From NCBI GenBank assembly GCA_000307935.1, contig AMWX01000001.1, forward strand, positions 163,388 to 227,387: DNA of 64,000 bases, read 5' to 3'. The DNA is from SAR86 cluster bacterium SAR86E (GTDB taxonomy: Bacteria > Pseudomonadota > Gammaproteobacteria > Magnimaribacterales > D2472). The notes under the pieces were generated by a model that saw only the letters and a list, made by a program, of their open reading frames with translations, did no database searches and was not told where the DNA came from. Of the stretch, positions 36,856-58,415 are shown one piece after another (the stretch's first letter is position 1; each line of letters opens with the position of its first letter). Both the position numbers and the translations under genes were made by a program.

Positions 36856-36862
36856 GTGCCTT

Positions 36863-37615
36863 CTACCTCAGAAATGCTTGGCCGCCATCAAGCATGATGG
36901 TAGATCCAGTAATATAATTCATGCCATCAGAAAGTATGTGGCAAACAGCTTCACCTATGTCATCTTTGCAGTCACCTACCCTACCTAGTGGAATAGTTTT
37001 AAGAAATTCATTTGCCTCGTCAGGATATTCACTCATCCACCAATCCATGCCAGTTGATTTTGCTAGAGGCATTATGCAATTTACTAAAATATTATCTGGG
37101 CCCCATTCAACTGCAGCTGCCCTCGACAACGATCGAATTGATTCCTTAACGGCCGCATAAGCTCCATACGAACCTGAATCCGGTCTTAATGCTGAGGAGC
37201 TAGCAAGATTAATAATTTTCCCATCTCCTTTAAGATGCGGGTAAGAAGCTTTCATAAAACGGAATGTAGCTAAGGGACCAGAATTCCAACCATCAATAAA
37301 AGATTCATCCGTTACATCTAGAATATTCCCCAGTGGTACTTCTTGAGCATTATTTACTAAAATATTTAAAGAGCTAAATTTTGAAAGACTGATTTTAATT
37401 GAGTTATTAATTGATTCTATGTTCTTAACATCGCACTCAACAGCAAGTGCCGAACCACCCTTTTGATTAATATCATTAGCAACAGCTTCAACTTTTGTAA
37501 AAGTTCTTCCAACCAAGCAAACGTTTGCACCATATGATGCAAGGGCTCTAGCTATTCCCTCTCCAACACCCTGGCCAGAGCCTGTGATTAAAGCTGTTTT
37601 ATTGAAAAAATCCAT
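36863..37615 (-). CDS. Short-chain dehydrogenase/reductase
   Basis: I prefer the ATG at 37615 (MDFFNKTALITGSGQGVGEGIA), 2 nt after the upstream stop. YAAVKES (YxxxK). The track's longer ORF overlaps the upstream gene. Confidence 0.8.
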   Translation of the reverse strand: MDFFNKTALITGSGQGVGEGIARALASYGANVCLVGRTFTKVEAVANDINQKGGSALAVECDVKNIESINNSIKISLSKFSSLNILVNNAQEVPLGNILDVTDESFIDGWNSGPLATFRFMKASYPHLKGDGKIINLASSSALRPDSGSYGAYAAVKESIRSLSRAAAVEWGPDNILVNCIMPLAKSTGMDWWMSEYPDEANEFLKTIPLGRVGDCKDDIGEAVCHILSDGMNYITGSTIMLDGGQAFLR

Positions 37616-37617
37616 AT

Positions 37618-39327
37618 TTAGAAGTTTGAGCCGGTAATGTCTTTTGCTGCCAAGTAACCAAAAGTCATAGCAGGACCCAAGGTTGAGCCAGGACCAGGGT
37701 ATGTCGGTAGCAAAGCAGTAGAGCAATTACCACAAGCATATAGACCCGGTATAGATTTACCTTCTTTATTGAGAACTCTTGCATTTGTATCTATTACTAA
37801 ACCGCCCGCTGTTCCCATTTCACCTGGATATAAAACCATGCAATAAAAGGGGCCTGTCTGAAGAGGAGCAAGACATGGGTTTGGGGTAACGGATGGATCT
37901 CCATAATACCTATCATAGACACTATCACCTCGATGCAGATCAAGATCTTTGCCCGTTGCTGCATAAGAATTTACTTTTGCTTGAGTTGCCAAAAGTCCAT
38001 TCACATCTATTCCAGCAACTTCAGCCAATTCTTCCAATGTTTCGCCCTTTGATAAGAAAGAAGGAGTCCACCATTCTCTGGGAACAGCTGAATCAGGTTG
38101 CATGGATGATTGGAGAAGAGGTCCGCATGGACGATTTTTTCTGAATTTACTATCAAAGACCATATAGCAAGGAGCGCATGGATTTCCCTCTGCATATTTA
38201 TCAAACATATCATTTACAAAACTGACATAATTTTGAGATTCATTAGAAAATCTTTCACCATTCTTATTAACAGTAAAATTTCCTGGCATTGACTTATCCA
38301 CCATTGAAAGCCATCCTTTGTCTTGTCCTGGCACTTTCATAACTGTAGACCACCAACCTGTATCCATTTGATGTGTATCAGCCCCTAGTTTTAAAGCAGC
38401 CTTTAGTGCATCTCCTGTATTGTAAGTATTTGCAGCACTCCACTCTATATTTGTGGGTTTTGGTAAATATTGATCTCTTAAGCCTTGATCCTTTTCAAAT
38501 CCACCAGATGCAAGAATTACTCCTTTGTTAGCCTTAATATTTATTTCAACATTATTTTTAGTAGCTTTAATACCAATGACTGCTCCATTTTCATTAATCA
38601 GATCCGTCATTGCTGTCTCTGTCCATAAATCAACATTCCTATCTTTTAAAGATAAAATTAATCTTGCAACACCTGCATTACCCATAGTAAGACGTCTATC
38701 TTTCCAACCCCATCTCAATCTCATGGGTATATCTAAAATATATTTAGTAAATAGTTTCGCAAATAATGATTTCCATCCAGGCAATGCACCAAGAAGAAGT
38801 TGACCCTCTACCTGTGTAAAGTTCATATTAATTGGGCCCATGGTGAATGCGGTTTGAGGGTGCTGCTCTCTCAATTTTTTAAGATCATCGCCAAGTTCAG
38901 TTCCCTTAATTGGTTCAGGCTCCATTGATCTATTACCTGCTTTACCACCGGGATTATCTGGAAAGTAATCTGGGTAATGTTGCAAGTTTCTATACTTAAC
39001 TTGTGTATTATCATGAAGATAATCAATCATTTTTGGACCTTCAGAAAGGTAAGTTTCAACAAGTTCATCTTTAATTTTACCTTCAGGTGAAACGCTATTT
39101 ATATAATCTCTTGCATCTTGATCAGAATCATCAACATTTTCAGCTTTTGCATACCTGTTATTTGGAATCCATACACCTCCACCTGATGTAGCAGAAGTTC
39201 CACCAAATTGAGTGCTTTTTTCAATTACCAACGTTTTAGCGCCACCGTCGTGACTGCATATAGCAGATGTTAAAGCTCCATTACCAGAACCAATCACAAC
39301 TACATCAAATTCATAATCCCATTTCAT
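37618..39327 (-). CDS. FAD-dependent 3-oxosteroid 1-dehydrogenase (KstD)-like flavoprotein
   Basis: 569 aa. EFDVVVIGSGNGAL...VIEKSTQFGGTSATSGGGVWIPNN closely parallels the N-terminus of actinobacterial KstD as I recall it. C-terminal GLYACGNC. Confidence 0.7.
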   Translation of the reverse strand: MKWDYEFDVVVIGSGNGALTSAICSHDGGAKTLVIEKSTQFGGTSATSGGGVWIPNNRYAKAENVDDSDQDARDYINSVSPEGKIKDELVETYLSEGPKMIDYLHDNTQVKYRNLQHYPDYFPDNPGGKAGNRSMEPEPIKGTELGDDLKKLREQHPQTAFTMGPINMNFTQVEGQLLLGALPGWKSLFAKLFTKYILDIPMRLRWGWKDRRLTMGNAGVARLILSLKDRNVDLWTETAMTDLINENGAVIGIKATKNNVEINIKANKGVILASGGFEKDQGLRDQYLPKPTNIEWSAANTYNTGDALKAALKLGADTHQMDTGWWSTVMKVPGQDKGWLSMVDKSMPGNFTVNKNGERFSNESQNYVSFVNDMFDKYAEGNPCAPCYMVFDSKFRKNRPCGPLLQSSMQPDSAVPREWWTPSFLSKGETLEELAEVAGIDVNGLLATQAKVNSYAATGKDLDLHRGDSVYDRYYGDPSVTPNPCLAPLQTGPFYCMVLYPGEMGTAGGLVIDTNARVLNKEGKSIPGLYACGNCSTALLPTYPGPGSTLGPAMTFGYLAAKDITGSNF

Positions 39328-39500
39328 AATAATTTTTTTAATTTTTCTTTAAATTGTAACTAATTCACTATAACCCATAGGGTATTTTTTAAAAAATATT
39401 CATATATCTTTATTATTATTGACAAAATTTTCCCAGTTGATACCCCCAAATTATTTTCATTAATGTCTATAATCTAATTTTATAAATTTATAATGATTAG

Positions 39501-40631
39501 ATGAAAACTGACATATGTAAAAAACTTGGAATTGAATACCCTATATTTGCTTTTACTCATTGCAGGGATGTTGTTGTTGCAGTTAGTAAAGCTGGTGGAA
39601 TTGGGGTGCTCGGTGCTGTGGGCTACTCACCGGAACAACTGAAGGAAGAGCTTGATTGGATTGATGAGCATATTGGAGAGTATCCATATGGTGTCGATAC
39701 AGTAATTCCTCAAAAATATGAAGGGATGGATGAAAAAGATCCTGAGCAATTATTAGAATCTTTACAAAAAATGATACCTGATGGTCATAGAGAATTTGTT
39801 GAAGAGCTTTTATCAGATAACGGGGTACCCAAAGCCCCAGAAACTAATGGTCCCAAGGGAGGTCTCTTAGGTTGGACAGAGGCAACAGCTGAACCTCAAA
39901 TTGATGAAGCATTAAAACATCCAAACGTAAAATTAATTGCTAACGCCCTAGGTACTCCTCCAGCAGATATGATTAAGAAAATTCAAGATAAAGGAGTTTT
40001 AATTGGAGCCTTATGTGGAAAAATTAAACAAGCCGTTGCTCACAAAGAAGCTGGATTAGATTTTATAATAGCTCAAGGTGGTGAAGGTGGTGGTCATACA
40101 GGTGAAATAGGGAGTATTGTCTTATGGCCTCAAATTATTGATGCAGTAGATGGTTTACCAGTTTTAGCTGCGGGAGGTATTGGAAGCGGCCGTCAAATGG
40201 CTGCAGCAATGTCTACTGGAGCACAAGGTGTTTGGTGTGGCTCATTATGGCTTGCTGTAGAGGAAGCTGCTGCTCAACCAGCTGAAAAAGACTCTTATTT
40301 AAATGCAACCAGTGAGGATACAATTAGAAGCAAGGCTTGGACCGGAAAGCCTGCAAGAATGCTGAAAAATAAATGGACTGAAGCATGGGAAAATCCTGAA
40401 AATCCTGATCCATTACCTATGCCACTTCAAGGAATGATCACTTTTGATGCTATGAGACGCACCTCTATGTATGCTGGCTCTGGAAGCACTCAAGAAGTTT
40501 CGTTTAATGCTGCTGGACAAGTTATCGGGCAAGTGAAACAAATTGAATCTGTAAAAGATGTTATCTATAGAATGATTAATGAGTATCTTGATTCTGTTGA
40601 GCGATTAAACTCTCTGCTACCAAAAGAATAA
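39501..40631 (+). CDS. Nitronate monooxygenase (NMO/2-nitropropane dioxygenase) family FMN enzyme
   Basis: 376 aa with IIAQGGEGGGHTG and LAAGGIGSGRQMAAA. Confidence 0.8.
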   Translation: MKTDICKKLGIEYPIFAFTHCRDVVVAVSKAGGIGVLGAVGYSPEQLKEELDWIDEHIGEYPYGVDTVIPQKYEGMDEKDPEQLLESLQKMIPDGHREFVEELLSDNGVPKAPETNGPKGGLLGWTEATAEPQIDEALKHPNVKLIANALGTPPADMIKKIQDKGVLIGALCGKIKQAVAHKEAGLDFIIAQGGEGGGHTGEIGSIVLWPQIIDAVDGLPVLAAGGIGSGRQMAAAMSTGAQGVWCGSLWLAVEEAAAQPAEKDSYLNATSEDTIRSKAWTGKPARMLKNKWTEAWENPENPDPLPMPLQGMITFDAMRRTSMYAGSGSTQEVSFNAAGQVIGQVKQIESVKDVIYRMINEYLDSVERLNSLLPKE

Positions 40632-40640
40632 TTTTTATTA

Positions 40641-40823
40641 ATGCTTGCAAGTCTCTTTTCTGAGCTCAATGACTTGCTATGGGGTCTTGGTATAGTTTCT
40701 TTTTCTATAGTTGGATTGTTGATATTACCAAAAAAATTTTCAGATAAACTCGGTCAGCACCCTCTAATTTTAGTGATTATGTTTTTTACAATTCTATATT
40801 TAGTAATAAAAATATTTAACTAA
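40641..40823 (+). CDS. Possible small two-helix membrane protein
   Basis: 60-aa ORF 9 nt after the NMO gene with two hydrophobic stretches. No homology recognised. Confidence 0.3.
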   Translation: MLASLFSELNDLLWGLGIVSFSIVGLLILPKKFSDKLGQHPLILVIMFFTILYLVIKIFN

Positions 40824-42115
40824 TTGCTTGAATTGAAATCAGTTGAAAAGTCCTCGACTAAATTAATAAATGCTTTTACTCCATTAGATAAAGCAGAATC
40901 ATCAACATAAAAGTATGGTGAATGATTTGTTGGGCTATCCTCGTCACCAGGCGCATTCACTCCCAAGAAAAAGAATAAGCCTGGAACTTGTTTAGCAAAA
41001 AATGAAAAATCCTCAGCACCAGTCCTAGGAACTCTTGCCTCAAAAAAATCTCCATCAGCAGCTTCACTCAAAGAAGAAGAATATTTATTAGCAAGCTCTT
41101 CATCATTAACAGTTACTGGATAACCTCCATATACTTGAAATTCTGCAACAGCCTTGGCGTGATGAGCAGCAGCTACATTTTCAGCAATAAGCTTAATCTC
41201 ATCTCGTATTTGAGCGGCATAAGAATCTTTGAATGTTCTAATAGTGCCCTCTAAGAATGCTGTTGAGGGAATGATATTATTTCTTGTACCTGCTTTCATA
41301 ATGCCAACTGTAACCACTGCTTGGCTATCTAAGAGATTTAACCTTCTGCTAACAATCGTCTGGAGTGTTGTTGCTATATCGGATGCTGCAATAATTGGAT
41401 CTACGCCACTCCAGGGTCTTGAACCATGTGTTTGCTTGCCCTGTACAGTAATTCTAAAAGCTTCTGCTGACGCCATAATTGGTCCAGGCTTAGTCCAAAT
41501 TTGACCATTTTTAAAGTTTGAGACATGTAAACCAAAGATGGCATCAGGTTTTTCAATCTCAAAAAGACCTTCTTTAAGCATTAGCTCAGCACCGCCCTCT
41601 TCTCCCTCAGGTGCTCCTTCTTCAGCAGGTTGAAAAATTAGTAAAATATCACCATTTAGCTTATCAGTATTTCTAGATAGGAAGCTAGCAACTCCAAGCA
41701 ATACTGCTATATGAGCATCATGACCACATGCATGCATGACTCCAACTTCATTACCTTGATAGGTAGTTTTAACTTTTGATGAAAATGGCAGGTTAAGCTT
41801 TTCAGTAACTGGCAAACCATCAATATCAGCTCTGAGTGCAATTAGCGGACCTGGGTTTTGACCTCTAATAAATGCAGTAACTCCTGTAATACCAAAATCT
41901 GTATTAGGCTCAAGACCCATCTCAGTTAAAGCTTCAGCTATAGATTCTTGTGTTTTGTATTCTCTGTTAGATAGTTCAGGATACTGGTGAAAGTAATGTC
42001 TCCAGTCAGTAACCTTTGTCATGACTCCTTGAAGATCTCTATTCAATTGAGTTTTTAAACCATCTGCTGATAAGGGATTTATCAACAACATTAAAATAAT
42101 AAAGTTTCTCATCAT
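40820..42115 (-). CDS. M20D-family amidohydrolase (aminoacylase/hippurate hydrolase-like), secreted
   Basis: 431 aa with MHACGHDAH and a signal-peptide-like N-terminus MMRNFIILMLLINPLSA|DG. The ATG abuts the upstream stop. Confidence 0.8.
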   Translation of the reverse strand: MMRNFIILMLLINPLSADGLKTQLNRDLQGVMTKVTDWRHYFHQYPELSNREYKTQESIAEALTEMGLEPNTDFGITGVTAFIRGQNPGPLIALRADIDGLPVTEKLNLPFSSKVKTTYQGNEVGVMHACGHDAHIAVLLGVASFLSRNTDKLNGDILLIFQPAEEGAPEGEEGGAELMLKEGLFEIEKPDAIFGLHVSNFKNGQIWTKPGPIMASAEAFRITVQGKQTHGSRPWSGVDPIIAASDIATTLQTIVSRRLNLLDSQAVVTVGIMKAGTRNNIIPSTAFLEGTIRTFKDSYAAQIRDEIKLIAENVAAAHHAKAVAEFQVYGGYPVTVNDEELANKYSSSLSEAADGDFFEARVPRTGAEDFSFFAKQVPGLFFFLGVNAPGDEDSPTNHSPYFYVDDSALSNGVKAFINLVEDFSTDFNSSN

Positions 42116-42994
42116 CTAGCCTTTTTTAAATACATTGATAAAAATAGCCGGTGTTTTATCCAAATAATCCTTGAAATCTGAACGTCTCTCTAGCGAACGT
42201 TTATCCATCATTGAAACTGAAGCAACTGCTATTAAAGCATACATAATTAATGTGCCTATCAACAGCCATGCAAACGATAAATTTGCAGCTAGTGCGAATA
42301 CAAATAGGCTAAACCAAAATAATATTTCTCCAAAATAATTTGGATGACGTGAGTAATACCAAAGACCTGATTTCATAGTTTTAGGCTCAGAAAGATTTTT
42401 TCTAAAATTAAACATTTGTTGATCAGAGATAATTTGGATAATGACTGCTGCTATAGCTAAAAAAGCAGCCAAAATATCTAAACTATTTAATTCGTTACCC
42501 GGATAAGCAAGAGCATAAATCATTGGAAGTAATGCCATATAAACACAGAGCGTTGGAATAAGATGTATTGAACCAAAATCTACCATGAAGTATTGAAATT
42601 TATTATTTGTTTTCCCCTTCATCATAACGTAGCGCCAATCTTCATGTGAAAAACCTTCCCATGACCTCATCCAGTTATAGGTTAATCTTATGGCCCAAAA
42701 CAAGAGACATGCATGCATTAAAAATGCTCTTTGAACATTTCCTGCAGCCGAAATATCCGCCCAACACATGATAGTTAAAACAACTGGAATAACTGACCAG
42801 AAAGCATCATACCAACTAGAGTTTTTAAAAATTACGCTTAAAAAATATATAAAAATGGTAGCCTCAATATGACAGACAAGTACTTTAAATATTAGCGATG
42901 ACTCAGGAAAAAGGCTCCAAGTAAATAACATAGAATAAATGCACGCTATGTAACCAACTAAAATAACTGATAAATGTAAAAGTTTAGTTCTCAT
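42116..42994 (-). CDS. DUF1295 / steroid 5-alpha-reductase-like polytopic membrane protein
   Basis: 292 aa with multiple TM helices and YSRHPNYFGEILFWFS. The start overlaps the fbiC stop by 4 nt. Confidence 0.75.
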   Translation of the reverse strand: MRTKLLHLSVILVGYIACIYSMLFTWSLFPESSLIFKVLVCHIEATIFIYFLSVIFKNSSWYDAFWSVIPVVLTIMCWADISAAGNVQRAFLMHACLLFWAIRLTYNWMRSWEGFSHEDWRYVMMKGKTNNKFQYFMVDFGSIHLIPTLCVYMALLPMIYALAYPGNELNSLDILAAFLAIAAVIIQIISDQQMFNFRKNLSEPKTMKSGLWYYSRHPNYFGEILFWFSLFVFALAANLSFAWLLIGTLIMYALIAVASVSMMDKRSLERRSDFKDYLDKTPAIFINVFKKG

Positions 42995-45405
42995 GTGATA
43001 TTAGTTAATTTTTTAGGTTGATGATAATCATTATTTATTGAGATGAGAGGAATAGACTGCAAGTTAATTAAATCATGAAGATTATTATCCAATGAATCAT
43101 ATAATGTATTTCTCTGTTGTATGTTTAAGTTTAGCTCATTGGCAATTCCTACAACGTCCTCCAGTCGGAGCTCCTGACCAAAAGAAGCACCGGCAGATCT
43201 TGTAATAGATTCATTCATCAAAACTCCTCCAATGTCATTTATCCCAGAAGATAGAAGAAACTTCAGTCCTGGAAGACCCATTTTAACCCATGAGCCTTGA
43301 ATATTATTAATCTGGCCTTGGAACAAAATTCTTGCAACAGAATGAACCAAAATTGTTTCTTTGAATGTAGGTCCAGGTCTAGCATGGCCGCGCCTATATA
43401 TTGGAGCCTCATCTGCAACAAAGGGCAAAGGAACAAATTCTGTTATACCATTAGTTCTCTGTTGAAGGTTTAAAAGCTCCAATAAATGATGAGCAACATG
43501 AGCAGTTCTCTCTACATGACCAAACATCATTGTTGATGTTGTGGGCAATCCCACAGAATGCGCGGTTTCAATAATTTCGATCCATTGCTTGGTGGTAAGT
43601 TTATCGGGGCAAATAATTTCTCTGATATCATCATGTAAAATTTCTGCAGCCGTTCCTGGGAGTGAGTTCAAACCTGCTTTTTTTAACTCTAGAAGAAACT
43701 CTTTAGCAGAGATATTTAAAGTTTTTCTACCGTGATCGATTTCTAAGGGAGAAAAAGCATGAATATGAATTGATGGTGAGCATGATCTAATTGACCTTAC
43801 TATCTCAAGATAAGTTTCACCAGAATATTTTGGATGTATTCCACCTTGTAAACAGACTTCTGTAGCACCTCTTTCAACTGCTTCTTTTGTTCTTCGAATA
43901 ATCTCTTCATGTGAAATATTATACGGCTTGCCTCTGAGGTCATCATGCCCCCTGCCTTTTGAAAAAGCACAAAAATTACATTTAAAAGAGCAGATATTTG
44001 TATAGTTAATATTCCTGTTAACAACAAAAGTGATGTCTGATCCATGCACTTGTGACTTAACATCATTGGCATAATCAGTAACATATTTAAAGTCAGTATC
44101 AGACGTCTCAAGGAGCTGCTGAATATTCTCAATAGATGGGTTGTTTTCAACTTTATTAATGGATTGACGAATACTAGAATTAAATACAGCCTCAGGATAA
44201 GAAGGTATTTTAGTGCTAATTCCTGATCTCCAGAAATCAGAACGAATAAGGGACTTAGAATCAGTTATTTGAAGTAGCTTGGAAGATATTATAGGTGTTG
44301 AAAAACTATCAAGATCAGTAAAATATTTTGGATATAAGGTTGATCTTGATTCTAAAGATTGATTTGAAATCGAAGCTATTTTATTTAACTTTTCTATTTC
44401 AGGCCAAGCTGCCTCTGGGTTTACATAATCCTTGGTAACTGGTGATATTCCGCCAAAATCATTTATTCCAGACTGAGATAGCTGTTTTATATTGTCTGAA
44501 TTTAAATTAGGCGGGACCTGCAGACTAATATCACCAGGCAAGATCAATCTGGACATTGCAATTGTCCACATAAGCTCATCGAATGATGGTTCGCTAGCAT
44601 TTGCCATCAATGTATTGGGCTTTGCTCTAAAGTTCTGCACTATAACTTCTTGGATATGATTGTATGTGCGATGCAATTCGGCTATTTTTTGCAATGACTC
44701 TAAGCGCTCCAACCTTGTTTCACCAATTCCTATCAATATTCCAGTGGTAAAAGGAACCTTTTGTTTTCCAGCTTCCTCTAATGTCTTCATTCTGAAAATA
44801 GGATCTTTGTCTGGAGAGCCGTAATGTGGTTGACCTTTTTCAGTAAGCCGAGATGATAATGACTCAATCATCAAACCCATAGAGCCACTTAGAGGTTTAA
44901 GTTTAGTAATTTCATCAGCAGTTAAACAACCAGGATTTAAATGTGGTATTAAAGATGTCTCATTTAAAACAGCTTCAGCGCATGCAGCTAAATAATCATT
45001 TGTCGTCTTGTAACCATTCTCTAACAACCACTCTCTTGCAGCTTTGTATCTCAATTCTGGCTTATCACCTAGTGTAAATAAGGCTTCATAACAACCGTGA
45101 GCCTCGCCCTCTTTAGCAATTGAAATGACTTTGTCTATTGATAAATAAGGTGATTCAACTTTTTTAGGAGTTTGAGCAAAGGTACAGTAATGACAAACAT
45201 CTCGACATAAAAATGTTAAAGGGATAAACACTTTTGGAGAATAGGTTAATAAGTTTTTGTAATGTATTGTTTTCTTTTCGTAGGAAGCTTTTATCAAAGT
45301 ATCAGATAAACAAATATTAGCTAAGGAACTTAATTCAGAAAATTCAATTGATCCAGAAGCAATTAATCGCTCTAAGGTTTGGTTTGACTGTTCTTGAATT
45401 TTCAA
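42991..45405 (-). CDS. fbiC: FO (7,8-didemethyl-8-hydroxy-5-deazariboflavin) synthase, fused CofG+CofH
   Basis: 804 aa with two radical-SAM motifs, CRDVCHYC in the N half and CSFKCNFC in the C half. Confidence 0.9.
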   Translation of the reverse strand: MKIQEQSNQTLERLIASGSIEFSELSSLANICLSDTLIKASYEKKTIHYKNLLTYSPKVFIPLTFLCRDVCHYCTFAQTPKKVESPYLSIDKVISIAKEGEAHGCYEALFTLGDKPELRYKAAREWLLENGYKTTNDYLAACAEAVLNETSLIPHLNPGCLTADEITKLKPLSGSMGLMIESLSSRLTEKGQPHYGSPDKDPIFRMKTLEEAGKQKVPFTTGILIGIGETRLERLESLQKIAELHRTYNHIQEVIVQNFRAKPNTLMANASEPSFDELMWTIAMSRLILPGDISLQVPPNLNSDNIKQLSQSGINDFGGISPVTKDYVNPEAAWPEIEKLNKIASISNQSLESRSTLYPKYFTDLDSFSTPIISSKLLQITDSKSLIRSDFWRSGISTKIPSYPEAVFNSSIRQSINKVENNPSIENIQQLLETSDTDFKYVTDYANDVKSQVHGSDITFVVNRNINYTNICSFKCNFCAFSKGRGHDDLRGKPYNISHEEIIRRTKEAVERGATEVCLQGGIHPKYSGETYLEIVRSIRSCSPSIHIHAFSPLEIDHGRKTLNISAKEFLLELKKAGLNSLPGTAAEILHDDIREIICPDKLTTKQWIEIIETAHSVGLPTTSTMMFGHVERTAHVAHHLLELLNLQQRTNGITEFVPLPFVADEAPIYRRGHARPGPTFKETILVHSVARILFQGQINNIQGSWVKMGLPGLKFLLSSGINDIGGVLMNESITRSAGASFGQELRLEDVVGIANELNLNIQQRNTLYDSLDNNLHDLINLQSIPLISINNDYHQPKKLTNIT

Positions 45406-45409
45406 CGAT

Positions 45410-45985
45410 CTAACTGTTTATGTATTTAATTAGTTTGAAGTAATCTTCCTCGGAGTCAAGGTCATCTTGAAGGCTTTCAATTGAAATATCCTGATAATTT
45501 AATCTATTATTTTTAAATTCATGCATAAAAAGATTGTAACTATTGAGTCCAAATTTTAGATCAAAGGAAATTGCTGAATTAAACATCAAACAATTTGTAC
45601 CTTGCATCGAAAGATCTGAAATAATACTAACTTTTTTAATGTCAAAGGAATGAGCTAACTCATGGAGATCCGGTTCATTTATTTTAGGGAGATCTGCATG
45701 CATGATTAAAATAATGTCATTGGTTGTTTGCGCATAGATAGCTTCATTTAGACCATCGTTTAATGATGAGTTTGTGAAATATGAAGTTGAATAGTCTAGT
45801 TGTAAGCTCTTGTCATTTGTCACAACTGTTATTGAATTACAGATTTTAGAGTTGTGCAAAGTATCAATAGTTTTTTTTGCCATTGAGGCAGCTAAAACTT
45901 CTCTTTCAGGTGAGGTAATAATATTTGCTAATCGATTCTTTGAAGATGAAAACTTTTTAATCGGTATAAATGCAGAGACATTCAT
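45410..45985 (-). CDS. cofC: F420 biosynthesis guanylyltransferase (CofC/FbiD)
   Basis: 191 aa with N-terminal AFIPIKKFSSSKNRL (family IPxK....K.RL). Positioned between cofD and fbiC. Confidence 0.75.
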   Translation of the reverse strand: MNVSAFIPIKKFSSSKNRLANIITSPEREVLAASMAKKTIDTLHNSKICNSITVVTNDKSLQLDYSTSYFTNSSLNDGLNEAIYAQTTNDIILIMHADLPKINEPDLHELAHSFDIKKVSIISDLSMQGTNCLMFNSAISFDLKFGLNSYNLFMHEFKNNRLNYQDISIESLQDDLDSEEDYFKLIKYINS

Positions 45986-46915
45986 TTATTTTGATTCAAG
46001 CTCATCAATGATTCTCTTGGCAAGTGCATTTTTTTTATTAACATTGTTCATAATTAAATCAGCAATATGAACCTCATAACCTAGATCATTTAATTCATTA
46101 GACTCACTTACATCAGAAGAATCTATAAAAATTCTTTGTGAGTAATTATTATAAAATTTAGCAATAGTTTTTACACTTACTTCTTGGCCGAGTTCTTGCA
46201 TCATTTTTGCTGTTGGTCCTTTTAATGACTGAGCATTAACAATTGGACTAATAGTTGTAACATTATGCGAATAATCATGTAAATAATTTTTTAGTTTGGG
46301 TAACTGGAGCATTGGATTAATGCTTACATAGGGATTTGATGGGCATATGATGATTTCATCATAAGTTGACAAATCAAGGTCTTTGTTAAAATCTGCCTTA
46401 TCAAGACCCTTGAAAACAAAATCAGTTACAGGTGGTTCGCACTTCAATTTAACAAAATATTCTTGAAATGAAAGCAACCTATTTTTTGTTTGTATATAAG
46501 TTTCAACAGATTGATTGCTCATTGGAAAAATAAATTTTGGGAGATTGAATGACTCACATAAATTATGTGTTGCATCTGTAAGAGATTGTCCAGAATTAAT
46601 TAAATGTGTTCTTTGAATATGTGTTGCTAAGTCTTTGTCTCCAAGTTGAAACCATGTTTCTCCCTCCATATCAGACAAAGCTGAAAGCATATTCCATGTC
46701 TCATCTTTTCTTCCCCAGCCCTTTGATGTATCGGATTCACTGGCAAGGGTATACATCACAGTATCAAGATCAGGACAGATTCTTAAACCAAGATGCGTGA
46801 AATCATCTCCAGTATTAACTGCAATAGTTAAGTTATCTGAATCAATTGAATTTTTAAATCCCAAGGCAAGCTTGGCTCCCCCAACACCCCCACATAACAA
46901 CAAATAATTCTTCAT
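45986..46915 (-). CDS. cofD: 2-phospho-L-lactate (or analogue) transferase (CofD/FbiA)
   Basis: 309 aa with LCGGVGGAKLALG and an ICPSNP motif. Confidence 0.85.
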   Translation of the reverse strand: MKNYLLLCGGVGGAKLALGFKNSIDSDNLTIAVNTGDDFTHLGLRICPDLDTVMYTLASESDTSKGWGRKDETWNMLSALSDMEGETWFQLGDKDLATHIQRTHLINSGQSLTDATHNLCESFNLPKFIFPMSNQSVETYIQTKNRLLSFQEYFVKLKCEPPVTDFVFKGLDKADFNKDLDLSTYDEIIICPSNPYVSINPMLQLPKLKNYLHDYSHNVTTISPIVNAQSLKGPTAKMMQELGQEVSVKTIAKFYNNYSQRIFIDSSDVSESNELNDLGYEVHIADLIMNNVNKKNALAKRIIDELESK

Positions 46916-47745
46916 CTAAATAAGTCCTCTTCCTCACTTCTAATTAAAGATCGAGAGTCGCTAAGATTATTTTGTTTAAATTGATAGCCTTTGATTAATA
47001 CAACAGGTTTTTTTTGTGCAGCCTGGCCCATCAATAATGATGAGGCTGCTGCTAATTCGTCAGCGATGCCTATTTGAGTTACTTTTAACTCATTATTATA
47101 AAGGTCTTTTTTACCTCGCTCATCTAAAAGGCATTCAATGTTATGACTCCCTATCGTAAAACCTACTATTCCATTTCTAAAAGGTCTGCCCATAGTATCG
47201 GTGATAATTATAGATATGTTTTTTTGAAAGTATTGAGATATGGATTCTGAAATCTTCTTAGCTGATTCGTCAGGATTTTCTGGTAACAACAAGACAATAT
47301 TCTTGAGTTGATCAATGTTAGACCGATCAATTCCTGCGTTTGCATGAATAAATCCCAATTTATGCTCAACAATTAATACTCCCATTCTATAGCGGACCAC
47401 CTTTTGTGATTCATTGAGTATTGCTTGAATAAACTTTGGATCTTTATCAATTTTTGTAGATAAGGTCATGGCCTCTTCTGAGGGGTCCAAGTGTGAGATG
47501 TCGAGATATCTATTTTCTGATTTAGAAATAATTTTTTGAGCTATTGCAATGACATCTCCATCATCAATTGATATTGATTCAGAGGTTATAGCCTTGATGA
47601 TTTCTTTGGATACATCTTGTCCTGGCTGAATAAGCGGAAGTGTCTCTAGAGCAATGAGGTTAATGGAACTGATAATACTTCTCTTGTTAGTGGCCTGTGA
47701 TCTTAATGCCTGAATGTGCAAGTGAGTGTTTTTTATTGATCGCAA
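46912..47745 (-). CDS. cofE: F420-0:gamma-glutamyl ligase, single-domain CofE
   Basis: GDVIAIAQKIISKSE and HANAGIDRSN. At most 277 aa, with no C-terminal nitroreductase-like domain. The start is uncertain: only TTG codons at 47745 or 47721 are available, and both overlap fno. Confidence 0.85.
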   Translation of the reverse strand: MRSIKNTHLHIQALRSQATNKRSIISSINLIALETLPLIQPGQDVSKEIIKAITSESISIDDGDVIAIAQKIISKSENRYLDISHLDPSEEAMTLSTKIDKDPKFIQAILNESQKVVRYRMGVLIVEHKLGFIHANAGIDRSNIDQLKNIVLLLPENPDESAKKISESISQYFQKNISIIITDTMGRPFRNGIVGFTIGSHNIECLLDERGKKDLYNNELKVTQIGIADELAAASSLLMGQAAQKKPVVLIKGYQFKQNNLSDSRSLIRSEEEDLFR

Positions 47746-48319
47746 TTAATATTGACGTTAGAGCTTCAGCAGCAACTGAATTGCATAATGGTCCAGCATG
47801 CCAGCCAGTCAGACCAGCATCAGCTGCTAACTCAATTACGGTATTTCTAGCATCAAGAAAATCTCCAGCAACCAAAACATCACAATCAATCTCAGCATCG
47901 GTCTGCAGTAATTCAGCTGAAATATTTTGAAAAGCAGATACTACAGTAGTTTGTTCACCCAAAATAGATTGAGCATTTAATGCCGCAGAACCTATTTCAG
48001 GCAATTGAACCCTCATAACCTTTGGAGGCATCAGTGGAACAGTTGCATCAATCATTATCTTATTTTGCAAACCATCATCAATACTTATTAAAGTTGATTC
48101 TTGATGCGCAAATGGCACAGTTAAGCATGCGATTTCACAGATTTTAGCAGCATCAATATTCAACATTCCAGATGAACTTTCCAAGCCTAATTGCACAGCA
48201 ATTTCTTGAGCCTTAGGTAAATCACGGCTGCCAATAAGCACGTCATGTCCAGCCTTAATCCATCTTGAAGCCAACCCTTTACCCAAGGATCCTGTCCCGC
48301 CTAGAATAGCTATTTTCAT
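47687..48319 (-). CDS. fno: NADPH-dependent F420 reductase (Fno/NpdG family)
   Basis: 210 aa with MKIAILGGTGSLGKGLASRWIKAGHDVLIGSRD. GGAG RBS upstream. Confidence 0.8.
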   Translation of the reverse strand: MKIAILGGTGSLGKGLASRWIKAGHDVLIGSRDLPKAQEIAVQLGLESSSGMLNIDAAKICEIACLTVPFAHQESTLISIDDGLQNKIMIDATVPLMPPKVMRVQLPEIGSAALNAQSILGEQTTVVSAFQNISAELLQTDAEIDCDVLVAGDFLDARNTVIELAADAGLTGWHAGPLCNSVAAEALTSILIAINKKHSLAHSGIKITGH

Positions 48320-48463
48320 TTAATGTCTCCTAATTAATATTTAATAAATATTATACAAATTCGCCAACCAATCAATGGGTATCTTCATGAATAAATTTGT
48401 CAATATAAATTTAGCTTACATGTTCTATAATCAATTAGATCAGATCAGTAAAAAATACTAAAA

Positions 48464-49228
48464 ATGATAAATTTAAAAAATAAATCTGTAGTTGTAACTG
48501 GGGGCACAAAAGGTATAGGTATTGAAATTACTAAATCCTTTTTAAAACAAAATGCTAAAGTCTTTGTTCTGGCAAGACAGAAACCCAAAAGAAGTATTCA
48601 GGCCAAAGGCAACAGAGCGGTATTCATAGAATGTGATATTAGAAATATTGATTCATTGGATGATGCAGTAAAACAAATTAAAGGCTTATCAAAATCAATA
48701 GACGTTTTGATAAATAATGCTGGTGGGGCTCCAATGGCTAATGCTTTAAGCGCTTCAAACAAATTTCATGAAGCAATCATTGATTTGAATCTATCTGCGC
48801 CACTTAATGTAAGCCAAAGATTTGCCAAGATTATGATGAAACAAAAGACAGTTTCAAACATTATTAATATATCCAGTGTTACCGCAACTAGACCTACACC
48901 AGGAAGTGCTGCTTATGGAGCAGCCAAGGGAGGTCTTGTCAATCTAACTAAAACGTTAGCAGTTGAGTGGGCTCCCAAAATTAAAGTTAACTCTATAATT
49001 GTAGGTTATATAGAGACAGAAAATTCTGTAGTTCATTATGGAAGCAAAAAAGAAATCAATAAAGTGGCGAAAACTATCCCCATGAAAAGAATGGGTAAAC
49101 CAGAAGATATAGCTAATGCTTGTATCTTCTTCTCATCCACTTTAGCTGATTGGATTACAGGTGCTGCTCTTGAGGTTCATGGCGGCGGAGAACAACCAAC
49201 CTATCTTGAGTTTGCAAAGCCCAAATAA
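48464..49228 (+). CDS. Short-chain dehydrogenase/reductase
   Basis: 254 aa with VTGGTKGIGIEI and YGAAKGG. Confidence 0.8.
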   Translation: MINLKNKSVVVTGGTKGIGIEITKSFLKQNAKVFVLARQKPKRSIQAKGNRAVFIECDIRNIDSLDDAVKQIKGLSKSIDVLINNAGGAPMANALSASNKFHEAIIDLNLSAPLNVSQRFAKIMMKQKTVSNIINISSVTATRPTPGSAAYGAAKGGLVNLTKTLAVEWAPKIKVNSIIVGYIETENSVVHYGSKKEINKVAKTIPMKRMGKPEDIANACIFFSSTLADWITGAALEVHGGGEQPTYLEFAKPK

Positions 49229-49286
49229 AGAACTTTATATAATATCTTATGTCTAAATAAGCATCGATTAATTGATAGAAAAGAAA

Positions 49287-49817
49287 ATGAATGAAAAATA
49301 TGTGCAGGCCTTAATTCTTGGAAGTATCATTGGTCTTGCAATTGTGATTGACGATATAATCAGTCCAAAAAATTTAATTAATAATGCGCCTATTTCTATA
49401 GGGATTATTGATGAAAAGTCTAAAAATTCCGATCAGCTCATCAAAATATTAGAAAGCCTTGGTTCTGATCATGAGTTAAAGAATCATAAAGTTGTTTTAT
49501 TAGATGCTAACGATGATAAAACGATGAGCTCTAATGAATTAAAAAAGATATTTAAAATTAAAATTGATGGAAATGATATAAATAAAGAGGAAGTAAAAAA
49601 GGATATCAGGATAAAAGTTAATACAGATGATATATCCGATATAGATATTCAATCAATTTTTGATGAAATTCAAATACAGCTTAGTGATGAAGAATACATT
49701 GAAGTGAAATCAAAATTAGAAGATGCAAAATCTGAATTGGAGAATGAGTTAGCTGAAGCAGCAGATCAGTTAGGTAATGTTGATATTGATATTCAAGTTG
49801 AGGTTGATAAAAATTAA
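49287..49817 (+). CDS. Hypothetical membrane-anchored acidic protein
   Basis: One N-terminal TM helix (ALILGSIIGLAIVI) followed by a Asp/Glu/Lys/Ile-rich region. ATG at 49287; the track's TTG is at 49272. Confidence 0.4.
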   Translation: MNEKYVQALILGSIIGLAIVIDDIISPKNLINNAPISIGIIDEKSKNSDQLIKILESLGSDHELKNHKVVLLDANDDKTMSSNELKKIFKIKIDGNDINKEEVKKDIRIKVNTDDISDIDIQSIFDEIQIQLSDEEYIEVKSKLEDAKSELENELAEAADQLGNVDIDIQVEVDKN

Positions 49818-49818
49818 T

Positions 49819-51345
49819 TTATCCAAATAATTTTCTGACCAAGCGATTGCCCCAAAATATTTTTAAAGCTCCTTTTAGTTGCTCAAATGATTTGTCTGTA
49901 TAGGGATAAGCTGATGCTGACTTTTTGCCTATGATAATTGGCATTGGATGGGCATATGCTAACAAGCCCTCTTTTCCATTCACTACCCCTAGGCCACTTT
50001 CTTTGACTCCACCGAATGGAACTTCATTAACTCCATAGCTCATTGCCATATCATTTACAGAGCAGGCACCTGTTTCAATTGCTTTGGCTAATCTCTGACC
50101 TTTTTTTAAATCTTTGGTCCAAACATTTCCATTCAATCCATAATGAGATTGGTTGGCTAACATTAATGCTTCCTCTTCTGATTGAACTTTCATAATTGAG
50201 ATAATTGGCCCGAAGGTTTCATCTTTCATGATCTTCATCTCATGAGTAACTTCTACAAGAACTGTTGGTTCAAAATATAAGCCTTCAAAATTTGGATTTC
50301 TTTTCCCTCCAACCAATACCTTTGCACCTTTAGCGACTGCATCATTCACATGATCTTCGATGATTTCAACTTGCTTATCCCAAAAAGTAGGGCCAACATC
50401 ACCTTTACAATCATTGGATTGAATGAGAGATTGAGTTATTGAAACTGCCTCTGCAACAAACTCATCATAAACATCCTCCATGACATAAATTCTTTCAGTG
50501 CCACAGCAATACTGACCTGCATTCATACATGAGCCCACAACAGCACCACTAGCAGCATCTTTGATGTCTGCATCAGAACAAACAATCATGGCATCTTTGC
50601 CACCCAATTCAAGACTATAAGGAATCAGCATTTCTCCACATTTTGCTGCAATCTTTTTACCTGTAGCAACGCTACCTGTAAAAGAAACCTTATCTGGACC
50701 CTGGTCAATTAACTCCGCACCTGTCTCCCCATCTCCTATAACGGTCTGCACAAGGTGCTCTGGGGCTTCAGCTAACGCAAAAATTTCCTGCACCAATGCT
50801 CCAGACATAGGAGTAACTTCAGATGGTTTCACCACCACGCTATTTCCACAAAGAACAGCTTGAATGACTGGATTAATAGACAGTATGAATGGACCATTCC
50901 ATGGAGTAATAACTGCTACCACACCTCTTGGCTTGTATGTGATTATTGTTTTCTTAAGAAACTGCATAGGTCCATGCATCTTTATTTTTTTATCTGCTAA
51001 CCACTTTTGAGCTCTCTTTGCATAGAAGACCAAAGAATCAACAGCTGAAAATACTTCCATAGACATAGCTTCTTGCTCAGGTTTGCCAGTCTCTCTCATG
51101 ACAACATCCATGATTCTGTCTTGCTGCTGAATAACTACATCAGCAACCCTATGCATTAACTCAACTCTTTCTTTCAAAGTTGTTTTCTTCCACTCACTTT
51201 GCGCAACTTTGGCTTGGGTCATTATCGATGAAATCTCTTCTGATGAAGTGCATTCATAAGTATCGATATGAGAGAGATCGACCGGGCTTTTTAAAGTTAA
51301 TAGTTTTTTGCCGCTCTCTGAATGAGAGATAGAAAAAATAGCCAT
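49819..51345 (-). CDS. Aldehyde dehydrogenase
   Basis: 508 aa with ELGGKDA and the catalytic-Cys region NAGQYCCGTERIYV. Confidence 0.9.
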   Translation of the reverse strand: MAIFSISHSESGKKLLTLKSPVDLSHIDTYECTSSEEISSIMTQAKVAQSEWKKTTLKERVELMHRVADVVIQQQDRIMDVVMRETGKPEQEAMSMEVFSAVDSLVFYAKRAQKWLADKKIKMHGPMQFLKKTIITYKPRGVVAVITPWNGPFILSINPVIQAVLCGNSVVVKPSEVTPMSGALVQEIFALAEAPEHLVQTVIGDGETGAELIDQGPDKVSFTGSVATGKKIAAKCGEMLIPYSLELGGKDAMIVCSDADIKDAASGAVVGSCMNAGQYCCGTERIYVMEDVYDEFVAEAVSITQSLIQSNDCKGDVGPTFWDKQVEIIEDHVNDAVAKGAKVLVGGKRNPNFEGLYFEPTVLVEVTHEMKIMKDETFGPIISIMKVQSEEEALMLANQSHYGLNGNVWTKDLKKGQRLAKAIETGACSVNDMAMSYGVNEVPFGGVKESGLGVVNGKEGLLAYAHPMPIIIGKKSASAYPYTDKSFEQLKGALKIFWGNRLVRKLFG

Positions 51346-51347
51346 TG

Positions 51348-52418
51348 TTATAACTCCTTAAGTTTAGCTTCAAGCATTGGCGTTACATGATTGTTAATAT
51401 GTGCATTCATACCCATAGGCATAATCTCATAATGCTCTAGTTTACGAACAACTTTAACCATAATTACGGTAAATTTGTATAACGCTAAAATGTAATAGTA
51501 ATCAAAATCATCTGCGCTAAACCCTGTAAGCGCTTCCCATTTAGCAATAGTTGCCACGGGCCCAGGAAAACCACTCAACCTCTCTACATGGACGCCTTTT
51601 GAGTTGCAATCATCAATTGCAATTCCCCATGCAAGATCCATGCAAGGATCGCCGAGAGCTGCCATTTCCCAATCTAAAACAGCTGAGACTTGGCCATCGG
51701 GGTCATACATAATGTTTGCACATCTGCAATCGCCCCAAAGTATAGAGGCTTGAGTTGGTTTTGGTTTATTGGTTTTTAGCCACTCACGCGCTTGATCTGC
51801 AACGGGATGAGCTTCACCGTCCATAGCCCAATCATGAAAGTTAAAATAATAATTTAGCTCTTGATCAAGATAATCTTCAGAAAGTTCTGGTCTATTCAGA
51901 AATTTAAAATCTTCATTCGCAATATCAACTTGATGAATTTTAGCCATTTGCTCAACCCAACCCCACCAAATCCTTTCTCTAACCTCTTCTGAGGAATCAG
52001 CAACCCACCCTTCTTGATGAAACGGAGGATTATCAGATGGAGCATCACCACTTGCCATTTCCATAACATAAAACGAAGTTCCAAAAACTTCATCACTAGG
52101 CTCATACCAAAGGACTTTTGGAACTTTGATATCATGATCAGCTAGTTTTTGCATGATCAAAAATTGCTTATGAATATCATAGTCAGGAAATACAAAAAAA
52201 CCTTCAGGATAGAATCGCAGCACCATACCGGTCTTAATTCTTGTATCTTCTAATTTATATGAGACATTGAAACTTAATGTTTCATTTGAAAAGCCTGTAT
52301 TTTCAGGGCCGCCTAATAACTCCACATCTAGATCAGTGGCTCCATCTAGTTTTGTCTCAATCCAGTTACTAAAAATTACCTTAGTTGCATCTAAATCTCT
52401 TTCTTGTGGCTTTGGCAT
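51348..52418 (-). CDS. Phosphotransferase (APH/ACAD10-N-like kinase fold)
   Basis: 356 aa with WGDCRCANIMYD and VLDWEMAALGDP. Confidence 0.75.
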   Translation of the reverse strand: MPKPQERDLDATKVIFSNWIETKLDGATDLDVELLGGPENTGFSNETLSFNVSYKLEDTRIKTGMVLRFYPEGFFVFPDYDIHKQFLIMQKLADHDIKVPKVLWYEPSDEVFGTSFYVMEMASGDAPSDNPPFHQEGWVADSSEEVRERIWWGWVEQMAKIHQVDIANEDFKFLNRPELSEDYLDQELNYYFNFHDWAMDGEAHPVADQAREWLKTNKPKPTQASILWGDCRCANIMYDPDGQVSAVLDWEMAALGDPCMDLAWGIAIDDCNSKGVHVERLSGFPGPVATIAKWEALTGFSADDFDYYYILALYKFTVIMVKVVRKLEHYEIMPMGMNAHINNHVTPMLEAKLKEL

Positions 52419-52485
52419 TGTGTTGTTCTATTCATTGATTAAACATCAACCTTAATATAAATTTAATGAATTAAAAAGAAAAACT

Positions 52486-53568
52486 ATGGCTGATTTGTTT
52501 AAAGAAAAGTGGGATGCATTTTGCGAAAACCTTAAAGAAGTTGGATCAATTATCGAATCAGAATCCTCGCTTAGTGAAACAGATCAAGTAGAGGGATACA
52601 GATATTTATTGAGGCTGATGCGTTTGTCATTAGAGATGAATATGGAGCATTCAAATCCCTCATCACCTTCTTTTTATAATCTATCTCATGAAACAGCAAA
52701 AATAGGTGCAGACAACCCAGATAATATTTACTTAAATGCAAACATACAAGGAAATCAAACCTATGAAGTTTATGGCAATATTGGTGAAGTTGAGTATTTG
52801 AGTTTTGGAATAAAAGAAAATAGATATAGCAAAGATGGAACCATGGTCTCTCTTGGGGAGATTGATATCAAAGATATGAATGTGGATGATTCGGGAGATT
52901 TTATTTTGCATATAGGCGGCGCAACTAATTCCAAAAATTTCTTGCCACTTCCTAAAAATGCAAATATGTTAATTGTTCGACAAACTTATACAAATAGAGT
53001 TACTCAAGCTCATGCGAAAGTAAATATAAAAACTACAAGCTCGCAGGCAATGCCTGAACTTTTAACATCTGAAAAACTGGAAACTCATCTAAATCAATCT
53101 TTAGCTTTTGTAAGTGGAACTGCATCAACATTCTTAAAATGGGTGCATGAATTTAAAGAAAATCATAAAAATCAATTGCCATTAGGCGATCAGTCATTTT
53201 TTCAAGCTGCAGGTGGAGATCCAAAAATCTGCTATCTTCATGGTTATTATGAATTTAGTAAAAATGAATATATGGAAATTACAACTGATATACCTGATTG
53301 TGAGTATTGGAATTTTCAATTAGAAAATTATTGGATGGAATCACTGGATTATCGACACTACCCTATTCATATAAACGAATCCTCAGCTGTTCTTAATCTA
53401 GATAAGTCTATTACCATTAATGTTAGTCATTTACCTGTAAATTTAAAAAATAATCTGATAACTGAAGGTCGTAATAATGGGGCTATGCTGTTGAGATGGA
53501 TCGGAGCAACCACTCATCCAATCCCCAAAGTATTAATAAAAACACTTGATTCCATGGAGATGAGCTAA
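52486..53568 (+). CDS. Hypothetical protein (possibly DUF1214-like)
   Basis: 360 aa. First gene of a seven-gene plus-strand operon. The family assignment is from weak recollection only. Confidence 0.35.
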   Translation: MADLFKEKWDAFCENLKEVGSIIESESSLSETDQVEGYRYLLRLMRLSLEMNMEHSNPSSPSFYNLSHETAKIGADNPDNIYLNANIQGNQTYEVYGNIGEVEYLSFGIKENRYSKDGTMVSLGEIDIKDMNVDDSGDFILHIGGATNSKNFLPLPKNANMLIVRQTYTNRVTQAHAKVNIKTTSSQAMPELLTSEKLETHLNQSLAFVSGTASTFLKWVHEFKENHKNQLPLGDQSFFQAAGGDPKICYLHGYYEFSKNEYMEITTDIPDCEYWNFQLENYWMESLDYRHYPIHINESSAVLNLDKSITINVSHLPVNLKNNLITEGRNNGAMLLRWIGATTHPIPKVLIKTLDSMEMS

Positions 53569-54707: not shown

Positions 54708-54715
54708 GAATAAAG

Positions 54716-55492: not shown

Positions 55493-55592
55493 ACGGGTAT
55501 CGAATGATATTTATTCGTCAAGTTAAATAAAAGTATTCCTCGTTTTTTTTATAAATAGGAATTTCAATACAAATATTGTTTAAAATCTAATT

Positions 55593-56459: not shown

Positions 56460-56470
56460 ATGGTAAAAGA

Positions 56471-57906: not shown

Positions 57907-57911
57907 AAAGG

Positions 57912-58403: not shown

Positions 58404-58415
58404 AACAAATTATCT

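Follow-up and report, generated by a model that had tools for sequence, protein, structure and literature searches.

A conserved operon predicted to make and reduce coenzyme F420 in the marine SAR86 cluster

We analysed a 64,000-nucleotide stretch of DNA (hereafter the window) from SAR86 cluster bacterium SAR86E, and found on its minus strand, between positions 42991 and 48319, five co-oriented genes of coenzyme F420 metabolism. They encode Fno/NpdG, CofE, CofD, CofC and a fused CofG-CofH FO synthase (FbiC). Judged from these genes, the locus very probably is a functional operon for F420 biosynthesis and for F420 reduction by Fno, with a lactyl-type cofactor made from 2-phospholactate (2-PL) or phosphoenolpyruvate (PEP) as its predicted product. 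The operon is 5.3 kb long, has the gene order fno-cofE-cofD-cofC-fbiC, and consists of the following genes:

47687..48319, minus strand: fno (npdG), NADPH-dependent F420 reductase, 210 amino acids (aa), the operon's first gene (TIGR01915, PF03807)
46912..47676, minus strand: cofE, F420-0:gamma-glutamyl ligase, 254 aa with a probable ATT start (TIGR01916, PF01996)
45986..46915, minus strand: cofD, 2-phospho-L-lactate (or enolpyruvyl) transferase, 309 aa (TIGR01819)
45410..45985, minus strand: cofC, guanylyltransferase activating the side-chain precursor, 191 aa (TIGR03552, below cut-off; PF01983)
42991..45405, minus strand: fbiC, fused CofG-CofH FO synthase, 804 aa (TIGR03550, TIGR03551, PRK09234)

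A preliminary description of this DNA had already placed five F420 genes here by recognising family hallmarks; the open reading frames (ORFs) are all present at those positions, and profile hidden Markov models support each family assignment. Four of the five proteins exceed the curated NCBIfam cut-offs: Fno (TIGR01915 npdG, 183.9 bits, cut-off 149.8; PF03807 is also matched), CofE in the frame 46912-47745 (TIGR01916, 266.2 bits, cut-off 180.65), CofD (TIGR01819, 269.6 bits, cut-off 257.45) and FbiC (TIGR03550 CofG, 486 bits, cut-off 213; TIGR03551 CofH, 499.7 bits, cut-off 374; PRK09234, 990 bits). The exception is CofC, 3.5 bits short of its model, which is assigned through Pfam PF01983 (54.6 bits, cut-off 22). 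Pfam is concordant for all five genes. Because E-values of 4e-29 to 7e-298 fall on five neighbours that belong to a single pathway, a chance assignment is ruled out.

Agreement with characterised proteins extends to full-length alignments and catalytic residues. Fno aligns over its full length with the Fno proteins of Thermobifida fusca (5N2I, E-value 2.8e-34) and Archaeoglobus fulgidus (1JAX), so that the operon itself contains an F420-reducing enzyme. CofD aligns over its full length with Methanosarcina mazei CofD (3C3D, 177.5 bits) and Mycobacterium smegmatis FbiA (6UVX, 166.6 bits). A loss of catalytic residues had been named as a possible refutation of the family assignments; instead, the radical-SAM cysteines and the ligand and metal residues of CofC are kept. 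Both CxxxCxxC motifs of FbiC are present, at C67-x3-C71-x2-C74 (CRDVCHYC) and C472-x3-C476-x2-C479 (CSFKCNFC), and CofC residues K10, D98, T130, S149, D175 and D177 are invariant in SAR86 alignments. The first four of these align to residues of Mycobacterium tuberculosis (Mtb) FbiD, and D175/D177 correspond to D188/D190 by position only.

The genes are tightly packed, with junctions exactly as first described: cofC and cofD abut at 45985/45986, cofD and cofE overlap by 4 nt (46912-46915), and a 4-nt gap (45406-45409) lies upstream of fbiC. Upstream of fno, a region of 144 bp contains two predicted expression signals:

48350..48357, minus strand: predicted extended -10 promoter element TG-n-TATAAT (TGTATAAT), upstream of fno, called from its conservation
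48327..48330, minus strand: Shine-Dalgarno GGAG, 7 nt before the fno ATG, called from aligned SAR86 intergenic regions

In the intergenic alignment, TTTGTATAAT (48357-48350) is unchanged in the window and 19 SAR86 loci while the neighbouring intergenic sequence diverges, and we infer from this that it may act as an extended -10 promoter. The Shine-Dalgarno GGAG is likewise kept in the aligned regions, reading GGGG in one locus. A generic promoter scan missed the conserved -10 element because it has no -35 match; overall, the generic promoter and terminator scan returned fewer sites than shuffled sequence did, and the intergenic alignment was more informative.

One detail of the preliminary description had to be corrected. 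It had opened cofE at a TTG at 47745, which would overlap fno by 59 nt and which occurs only here and in the closest relative. Of 21 SAR86 sequences, 11 have an in-frame stop 0-4 codons before a conserved Ile-Ile pair that itself follows the fno stop, which makes the ATT at 47676 the likely cofE start and gives a protein of 254 aa. The same layout is seen at the junction 47674-47689 on the minus strand and in loci L003-L025, where Ile-Ile with ATT or ATC comes 0-15 nt after either an in-frame stop or the stop of fno. The first Ile is encoded by ATT in 15 sequences and by ATC in 3, and in the other two an ATT/ATC stands one codon later. In five genomes ATG, GTG and TTG are absent from the first 50 codons of the open cofE frame. 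The N-terminal segment after Ile-Ile is conserved, the family model is matched from its second position, and the protein counted from the ATT aligns over its full length with A. fulgidus CofE (7ULD/2PHN, E-value 3e-48, 168 bits), residue 6 of one pairing with residue 6 of the other. A public gene call in one deep SAR86 lineage also opens cofE at ATT. The start is therefore probably a non-canonical ATT at 47676 (ATT or ATC across SAR86), 10 nt past the fno stop, and initiation is possibly helped by coupling to fno termination. A Fno-CofE fusion produced by readthrough or frameshifting was also considered and rejected, since the frame relation between fno and cofE differs among genomes (0, +1, +2).

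To place the operon in its clade, we searched for relatives of FbiC using one genome per species. Relatives were found in 23 SAR86-type genomes at 69% to 97% identity, the closest being the single-amplified genome (SAG) AG-313-O08 (97%). A look-up for exact copies gave no match to the window FbiC and placed CofD on two short contigs only. In 18 SAR86 species-level genomes all five genes stand in the order of the window, the other loci being cut by contig ends or masked. Two deep SAR86 lineages, with FbiC at 55% identity, share the five-gene order and the flanks, and a third FbiC at 55% identity belongs to a cluster that includes a sequence labelled SAR86 by NCBI. Synteny of the operon with about 20 kb of flanking sequence holds in 20 SAR86 genomes, down to an FbiC identity of 55%. 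What looked like gene decay in one locus (L021) is accounted for by 1,932 masked N bases, and its genes are not pseudogenes. The host, which the preliminary description had taken for gammaproteobacterial and AT-rich, is indeed a SAR86 cluster lineage of the Gammaproteobacteria, neither actinobacterial nor archaeal. The GC fraction of the operon (0.350) is close to that of the window (0.347), so composition carries no sign of recent transfer. The SAR86 F420 operon is most likely vertically inherited.

We then computed the ratio of nonsynonymous to synonymous substitution rates (dN/dS) pairwise between the window and seven relatives. Values were 0.01-0.10 for fno, 0.05-0.11 for cofE, 0.07-0.13 for cofD, 0.11-0.17 for cofC and 0.07-0.12 for fbiC, compared with 0.01-0.05 for the neighbouring genes KstD, NMO and aldehyde dehydrogenase. 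The F420 genes are clearly under purifying selection, yet under looser selection than their neighbours. Together with the clade-wide conservation, this supports the earlier suggestion that the lineage probably makes F420 and reduces it with NADPH through Fno.

The synonymous rates (dS) also form a mosaic along the window (36358-55492, compared with L004, L022 and L007). Against L004, dS is 0.17-0.42 in the F420 genes and 0.78-1.69 in the flanking KstD, NMO, APH and hyp360 genes; against L022, the low-dS block moves to ALDH through SDR_c. Such a mosaic would fit homologous recombination between SAR86 populations.

The same gene order is found outside SAR86. In a marine gammaproteobacterium (L029/L030; FbiC 52% identical, 56% GC), the operon is again fno-cofE-cofD-cofC-fbiC, and it is flanked by two LLM genes (region 700-12500). 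One of them, divergent from fno, matches the F420-dependent family TIGR03564 at 315.8 bits (cut-off 234). An identical gene order beside an F420-dependent LLM marks the unit as a recurrent F420 module. In this outgroup the second LLM gene is 5 kb away, mevalonate-pathway genes are nearby, and the lineage is abundant.

Read from the genes, the pathway would run as follows. FbiC, two fused radical-SAM enzymes, would make the deazaflavin FO from tyrosine and a riboflavin precursor. CofC would activate a three-carbon phospho-acid with GTP, most likely 2-PL or PEP and not 3-phosphoglycerate (3-PG), and CofD would move the activated acid onto FO to give F420-0 or dehydro-F420-0. The single-domain, archaeal-type CofE would then attach the gamma-glutamyl tail, and Fno would spend NADPH to keep the cofactor reduced. 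Transcription would start from the conserved extended -10 promoter upstream of fno, and cofE would be translated from a weak ATT codon 10 nt past the fno stop. In this scheme the precursor, the promoter and the cofE start are inferred, as are F420 production itself and the direction in which Fno works.

Enzymes that use F420 were sought by scanning against Pfam or NCBIfam all ORFs of at least 150 aa, four smaller ORFs lying outside them and both partial ORFs at the ends of the window. The scan was continued 10 kb past the right end on a contig that carries an identical M28 peptidase, giving about 74 kb in all. The extension encodes an M16 peptidase, a P450, an ABC-F protein, a thioesterase and fatty-acid hydroxylases, and no F420 client. 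A probe search with the outgroup TIGR03564 LLM was uninformative for SAR86, all 120 matches listed being at least 77% identical to the outgroup lineage. F420H2-consuming enzymes are presumably encoded elsewhere in the SAR86 genome.

Several observations weigh against a working F420 pathway. The F420 genes evolve faster than their neighbours, which points to weaker constraint; CofC is the fastest, with 53-60% identity where NMO stays at 90-94%. CofC also scores 101.5 bits against TIGR03552, below the cut-off of 105. The weak ATT start would yield little CofE. No LLM/luciferase-like, FDOR/PNPOx or Fgd family was found in the 64-kb window or in the 10 kb past its right end; for the window this agrees with the preliminary description, no scanned ORF having such a match. 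Neither an FbiB C-terminal-type nor an FbiE-type nitroreductase that could reduce dehydro-F420-0 occurs in the roughly 74 kb, and no known 2-PL route was seen around the operon. With neither of these in hand, closure of the pathway is not demonstrable. The earlier term 'complete operon' thus applies to the five genes, which are intact, and not to the pathway, for which a precursor source or a dehydro-F420 reductase was not identified. Finally, SAR86 is uncultured.

On the side chain, Hasan et al. found that Ser or Thr at S162 of the Mycetohabitans CofC, the position of G163 in Mtb FbiD, goes with acceptance of 3-PG, and that Gly there goes with 2-PL/PEP enzymes (PMC8764529). Using a profile built from 13 SAR86 CofCs, and correcting the numbering of Mtb FbiD (6BWG) for a 14-residue tag offset, we aligned the FGxxS motif of SAR86 CofC to FGPDS of FbiD (G146 = G163, S149 = S166, D98 = D116, T130 = T148). 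Gly146 is unchanged in the 13 SAR86 CofCs and in two deep lineages, none of which has Ser or Thr at this position. A glycine at the diagnostic position makes a route to 3PG-F420 unlikely, and a lactyl or enolpyruvyl side chain is expected in place of a glyceryl one. Of the three precursors offered in the preliminary description (2-PL, PEP and 3-PG), the last can now be ranked as unlikely. The CofC profile matches M. mazei CofC (2I5E) at 43.3 bits, Mtb FbiD at 30.7 and Mycetohabitans CofC (7P97) at 29.3. Taken with the CofD alignments, these comparisons with solved structures slightly favour an archaeal type.

Within this reading, as a variant and not a competitor, a PEP route is possible, though we hold it tentatively: CofC and CofD would make dehydro-F420-0, which would be reduced by an enzyme other than FbiB or FbiE or used as dehydro-F420. 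PEP is a universal metabolite, while CofB (lactate kinase) is unidentified in any organism and the bacterial source of 2-PL is not known (PMC8498797). The CofC glycine is as in PEP/2-PL-type enzymes, and CofD scores nearly as well against FbiA, a phosphoenolpyruvate transferase, as against archaeal CofD. On the other side, no nitroreductase-family gene was found among the window ORFs or in the 10-kb extension, CofE is a single-domain protein, and the CofC profile lies nearest to M. mazei CofC and not to Mtb FbiD. In-vitro assays fail to separate 2-PL from PEP use even in characterised proteobacterial CofCs (PMC8764529). CofE had been described as single-domain without a nitroreductase module, and this stands: at 254-277 aa depending on the start, its sole Pfam match is PF01996, and Pfam finds no nitroreductase domain in it. 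As makers of 2-PL we considered an aldehyde dehydrogenase and an APH-family kinase encoded about 1.5-4 kb upstream on the operon's strand, with two opposite-strand genes intervening; the idea is unsupported, and the outgroup operon is missing both genes.

We see a small chance that an undescribed component completes or uses the SAR86 pathway. Candidates are a new class of F420H2-dependent enzyme (DUF1295, a divergent SDR or a 6ANS-like orphan, all described below) or a novel way of building the side chain. Another possibility is that SAR86 releases the deazaflavin into surface waters, where it would be a shared good.

There is very little chance, in our estimate, that SAR86 makes 3PG-F420 in the manner of Mycetohabitans (Paraburkholderia) rhizoxinica, a betaproteobacterium, so that no reduction step is needed. 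This would explain the missing reductase, and the two architectures do resemble each other: a Gram-negative host, a fused FbiC, CofC, CofD, a single-domain CofE, Fno as the sole known F420-reducing enzyme and no recognisable F420-dependent clients (PMC8498797; for SAR86 within about 74 kb). But M. rhizoxinica has Ser at the 3-PG position where SAR86 has the invariant Gly146 (by the Ser/Thr criterion of PMC8764529), the His145-equivalent position holds Q, N, I or S in SAR86 CofCs and not His, and Mycetohabitans CofC is the weakest match of the three solved CofCs. The lifestyles also differ, SAR86 being free-living, streamlined and marine and M. rhizoxinica a fungal endosymbiont.

Slighter still is the prospect that the real product is FO, for instance as a photolyase antenna chromophore, and that the side-chain genes are dispensable remnants. 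SAR86 is a photic-zone bacterium, the photolyases of some organisms use FO alone (PMC8498797), and a client for F420 was not found locally. In addition, Pseudohongiella-type contigs from metagenome-assembled genomes (L028, L032) carry fbiC alone, with cofC, cofD, cofE and fno absent within 10 kb, which suggests FO-only use in that lineage. An organism using FO only would resemble those loci and not the SAR86 locus, where every complete example carries intact cofC, cofD, cofE and fno; these genes have dN/dS of 0.01-0.17 and are kept down to 55% FbiC identity. Moreover, FO genes usually co-occur with F420 genes, FO being the precursor (PMC8498797).

The preferred reading, an operon for a lactyl-type F420 with Fno, can be set against other known systems. 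Archaea (M. mazei, A. fulgidus, Methanocaldococcus jannaschii) share the single-domain CofE, and among solved structures the best matches of SAR86 CofC and CofD are those of M. mazei. Archaeal CofG and CofH are separate (PMC8498797) while the SAR86 FO synthase is fused, and an archaeal-type source of 2-PL (the lactaldehyde dehydrogenase CofA together with CofB) was not identified in the SAR86 data. The FbiA-FbiB-FbiC-FbiD system of Mycobacterium has a fused FbiC as in SAR86, and SAR86 CofC has the PEP-binding residues of Mtb FbiD. Unlike Mycobacterium, SAR86 has no FbiB C-terminal nitroreductase or stand-alone FbiE in the 74 kb, and its associated reductase is Fno, not Fgd. Among Alphaproteobacteria, Paracoccus denitrificans and Oligotropha carboxidovorans carry Cof-type genes like those of SAR86, and in vitro their CofCs favour 2-PL or PEP (PMC8764529); they also encode Fgd and produce only trace F420 (PMC8498797). 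In SAR86, unlike in these organisms, the genes form one compact fno-first operon conserved across the clade.

Downstream and upstream of the operon, three neighbouring genes are of interest:

42116..42994, minus strand: DUF1295 membrane protein, steroid-5-alpha-reductase-like (PF06966, 150.6 bits)
40820..42115, minus strand: M20 amidohydrolase, last gene of the co-oriented run (TIGR01891, 324.6 bits, cut-off 153.75)
48464..49228, plus strand: SDR oxidoreductase, divergent from fno (NF005893, 331 bits, cut-off 255)

A 4-nt overlap joins the DUF1295 gene to the stop of fbiC, the M20 gene abuts the DUF1295 gene, and the run ends at the convergent NMO gene. The likely transcription unit thus extends from fno to the M20 gene (48319 down to 40820), as judged from spacing alone. 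The fbiC-DUF1295 adjacency is found in all SAR86 lineages, deep ones included. The nearest solved relatives of the M20 protein are YxeP and N-acyl-amino-acid amidohydrolases; its N-terminus, MMRNFIILMLLINPLSADG, is signal-peptide-like, and the protein therefore probably acts outside the cytoplasm. In SAG AG-447-I15 (L007 12412-14600), all five F420 genes are intact, but DUF1295 and M20 are each broken over different reading frames, which could reflect sequencing error or genuine decay. The position of the divergent SDR is kept across SAR86, and in the outgroup L029/L030, which has no downstream DUF1295, the same slot holds the F420-dependent LLM. No evidence for F420 use by this SDR was found.

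These neighbours raise the idea of a seven-gene operon, in which DUF1295 would be a new F420H2-dependent reductase acting on sterol-like or enone substrates of the neighbouring KstD, KshA-like and SDR genes. The overlap with fbiC, the abutting M20 gene and the constant adjacency in SAR86 favour it, as does the absence of a canonical client nearby. From fbiC to the last gene of the run no intervening terminator-like site was found, the sole such match in the scanned region being inside fbiC, and F420H2-dependent enzymes commonly reduce enones and quinones (PMC8498797, Table 5). Adjacency is weak evidence here, however, because the flanks are syntenic over about 20 kb across SAR86. DUF1295 homologues (39-43% identity) occur in three unrelated genomes with F420 genes absent nearby, and the outgroup has the five-gene operon and no DUF1295. 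Characterised members of the DUF1295/steroid-5-alpha-reductase superfamily use NADPH or S-adenosylmethionine, which also counts against the idea, and the M20 protein is probably extracytoplasmic. We find this the least credible of the alternatives and regard DUF1295 and M20 as co-transcribed passengers in a compact genome.

One of the non-SAR86 DUF1295 homologues adjoins a Steroid_dh paralogue, a sulfotransferase and a 3-beta-HSD-like gene, neighbours that echo a sterol/lipid theme in SAR86 (KstD, KshA-like Rieske, SnoaL, sulfotransferase). The SAR86 operon is surrounded by a conserved block of catabolic oxidoreductase genes (window 36358-40631 and 49819-61615; L036 1-10000). The block comprises a KstD-like 3-ketosteroid dehydrogenase, NMO, two SnoaL-like proteins, four SDRs, an aldehyde dehydrogenase, an APH-family kinase, a sulfotransferase, an amidohydrolase_2 protein, a KshA-like Rieske oxygenase, a cupin, a rubredoxin (in L036), a BVMO/FMO and a P450 just past the window. 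Its content suggests breakdown of sterol-, terpenoid- or lipid-like substrates. An orphan of 360 aa, hyp360 (52486-53568, plus strand), is conserved and always stands beside the sulfotransferase gene. It has no Pfam or NCBIfam match and is a strong homologue of PDB 6ANS (E-value 6e-97), deposited as 'uncharacterized protein'; its single-sequence AlphaFold model was unusable (pLDDT 32.7).

Two features lie further away. A 624-aa ORF in the his operon (6978-8852, plus strand) matches histidinol dehydrogenase (residues 25-423) and imidazoleglycerol-phosphate dehydratase (residues 463-605), and looks like a hisD-hisB(IGPD) fusion. The minus strand at 1-3346 encodes a 596-aa protein containing bacterial Ig/cadherin-like repeats and, after it, a partial ORF that spans at least 514 aa and matches no family; this is possibly a large surface protein.

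The novelty of F420 in a proteobacterium had been overrated in the preliminary description. F420 production is confirmed in Proteobacteria and Chloroflexi, Proteobacteria have fused FbiC, marine metagenomes are rich in F420 biosynthesis genes, and Fno is the only F420-reducing enzyme encoded by betaproteobacterial and Tectomicrobia producers (PMC8498797). The same review counts what F420 does in Proteobacteria among the open questions, and the term Gammaproteobacteria is not in its text (PMC8498797). We searched the literature for SAR86 together with F420, deazaflavin, luciferase-like or photolyase, and for 'F420 biosynthesis' together with Gammaproteobacteria, and found nothing relevant. Public pipelines already label SAR86 proteins FO synthase or CofH. 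The operon does extend a known pathway to a new lineage, but in an ordinary way; as a system it is not novel, and its conservation at clade level is worth knowing. Practical value is limited, as SAR86 is uncultured and the annotations are already public.

Few heterotrophs of the sunlit ocean are as abundant as the SAR86 bacteria, whose genomes are small and streamlined. It is non-trivial that a globally abundant, streamlined bacterium maintains this pathway while the surrounding 74 kb holds no known consumer. SAR86 is a candidate contributor to the abundant F420 biosynthesis genes of marine metagenomes (PMC8498797), and the catabolic neighbourhood of the operon (KstD, KshA-like Rieske oxygenase, BVMO, P450, SDRs) suggests a reductive role in the breakdown of recalcitrant organic matter. 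Retention of a 5.3-kb pathway clade-wide and under purifying selection, in genomes this streamlined, indicates that F420-dependent chemistry aids the fitness of SAR86.

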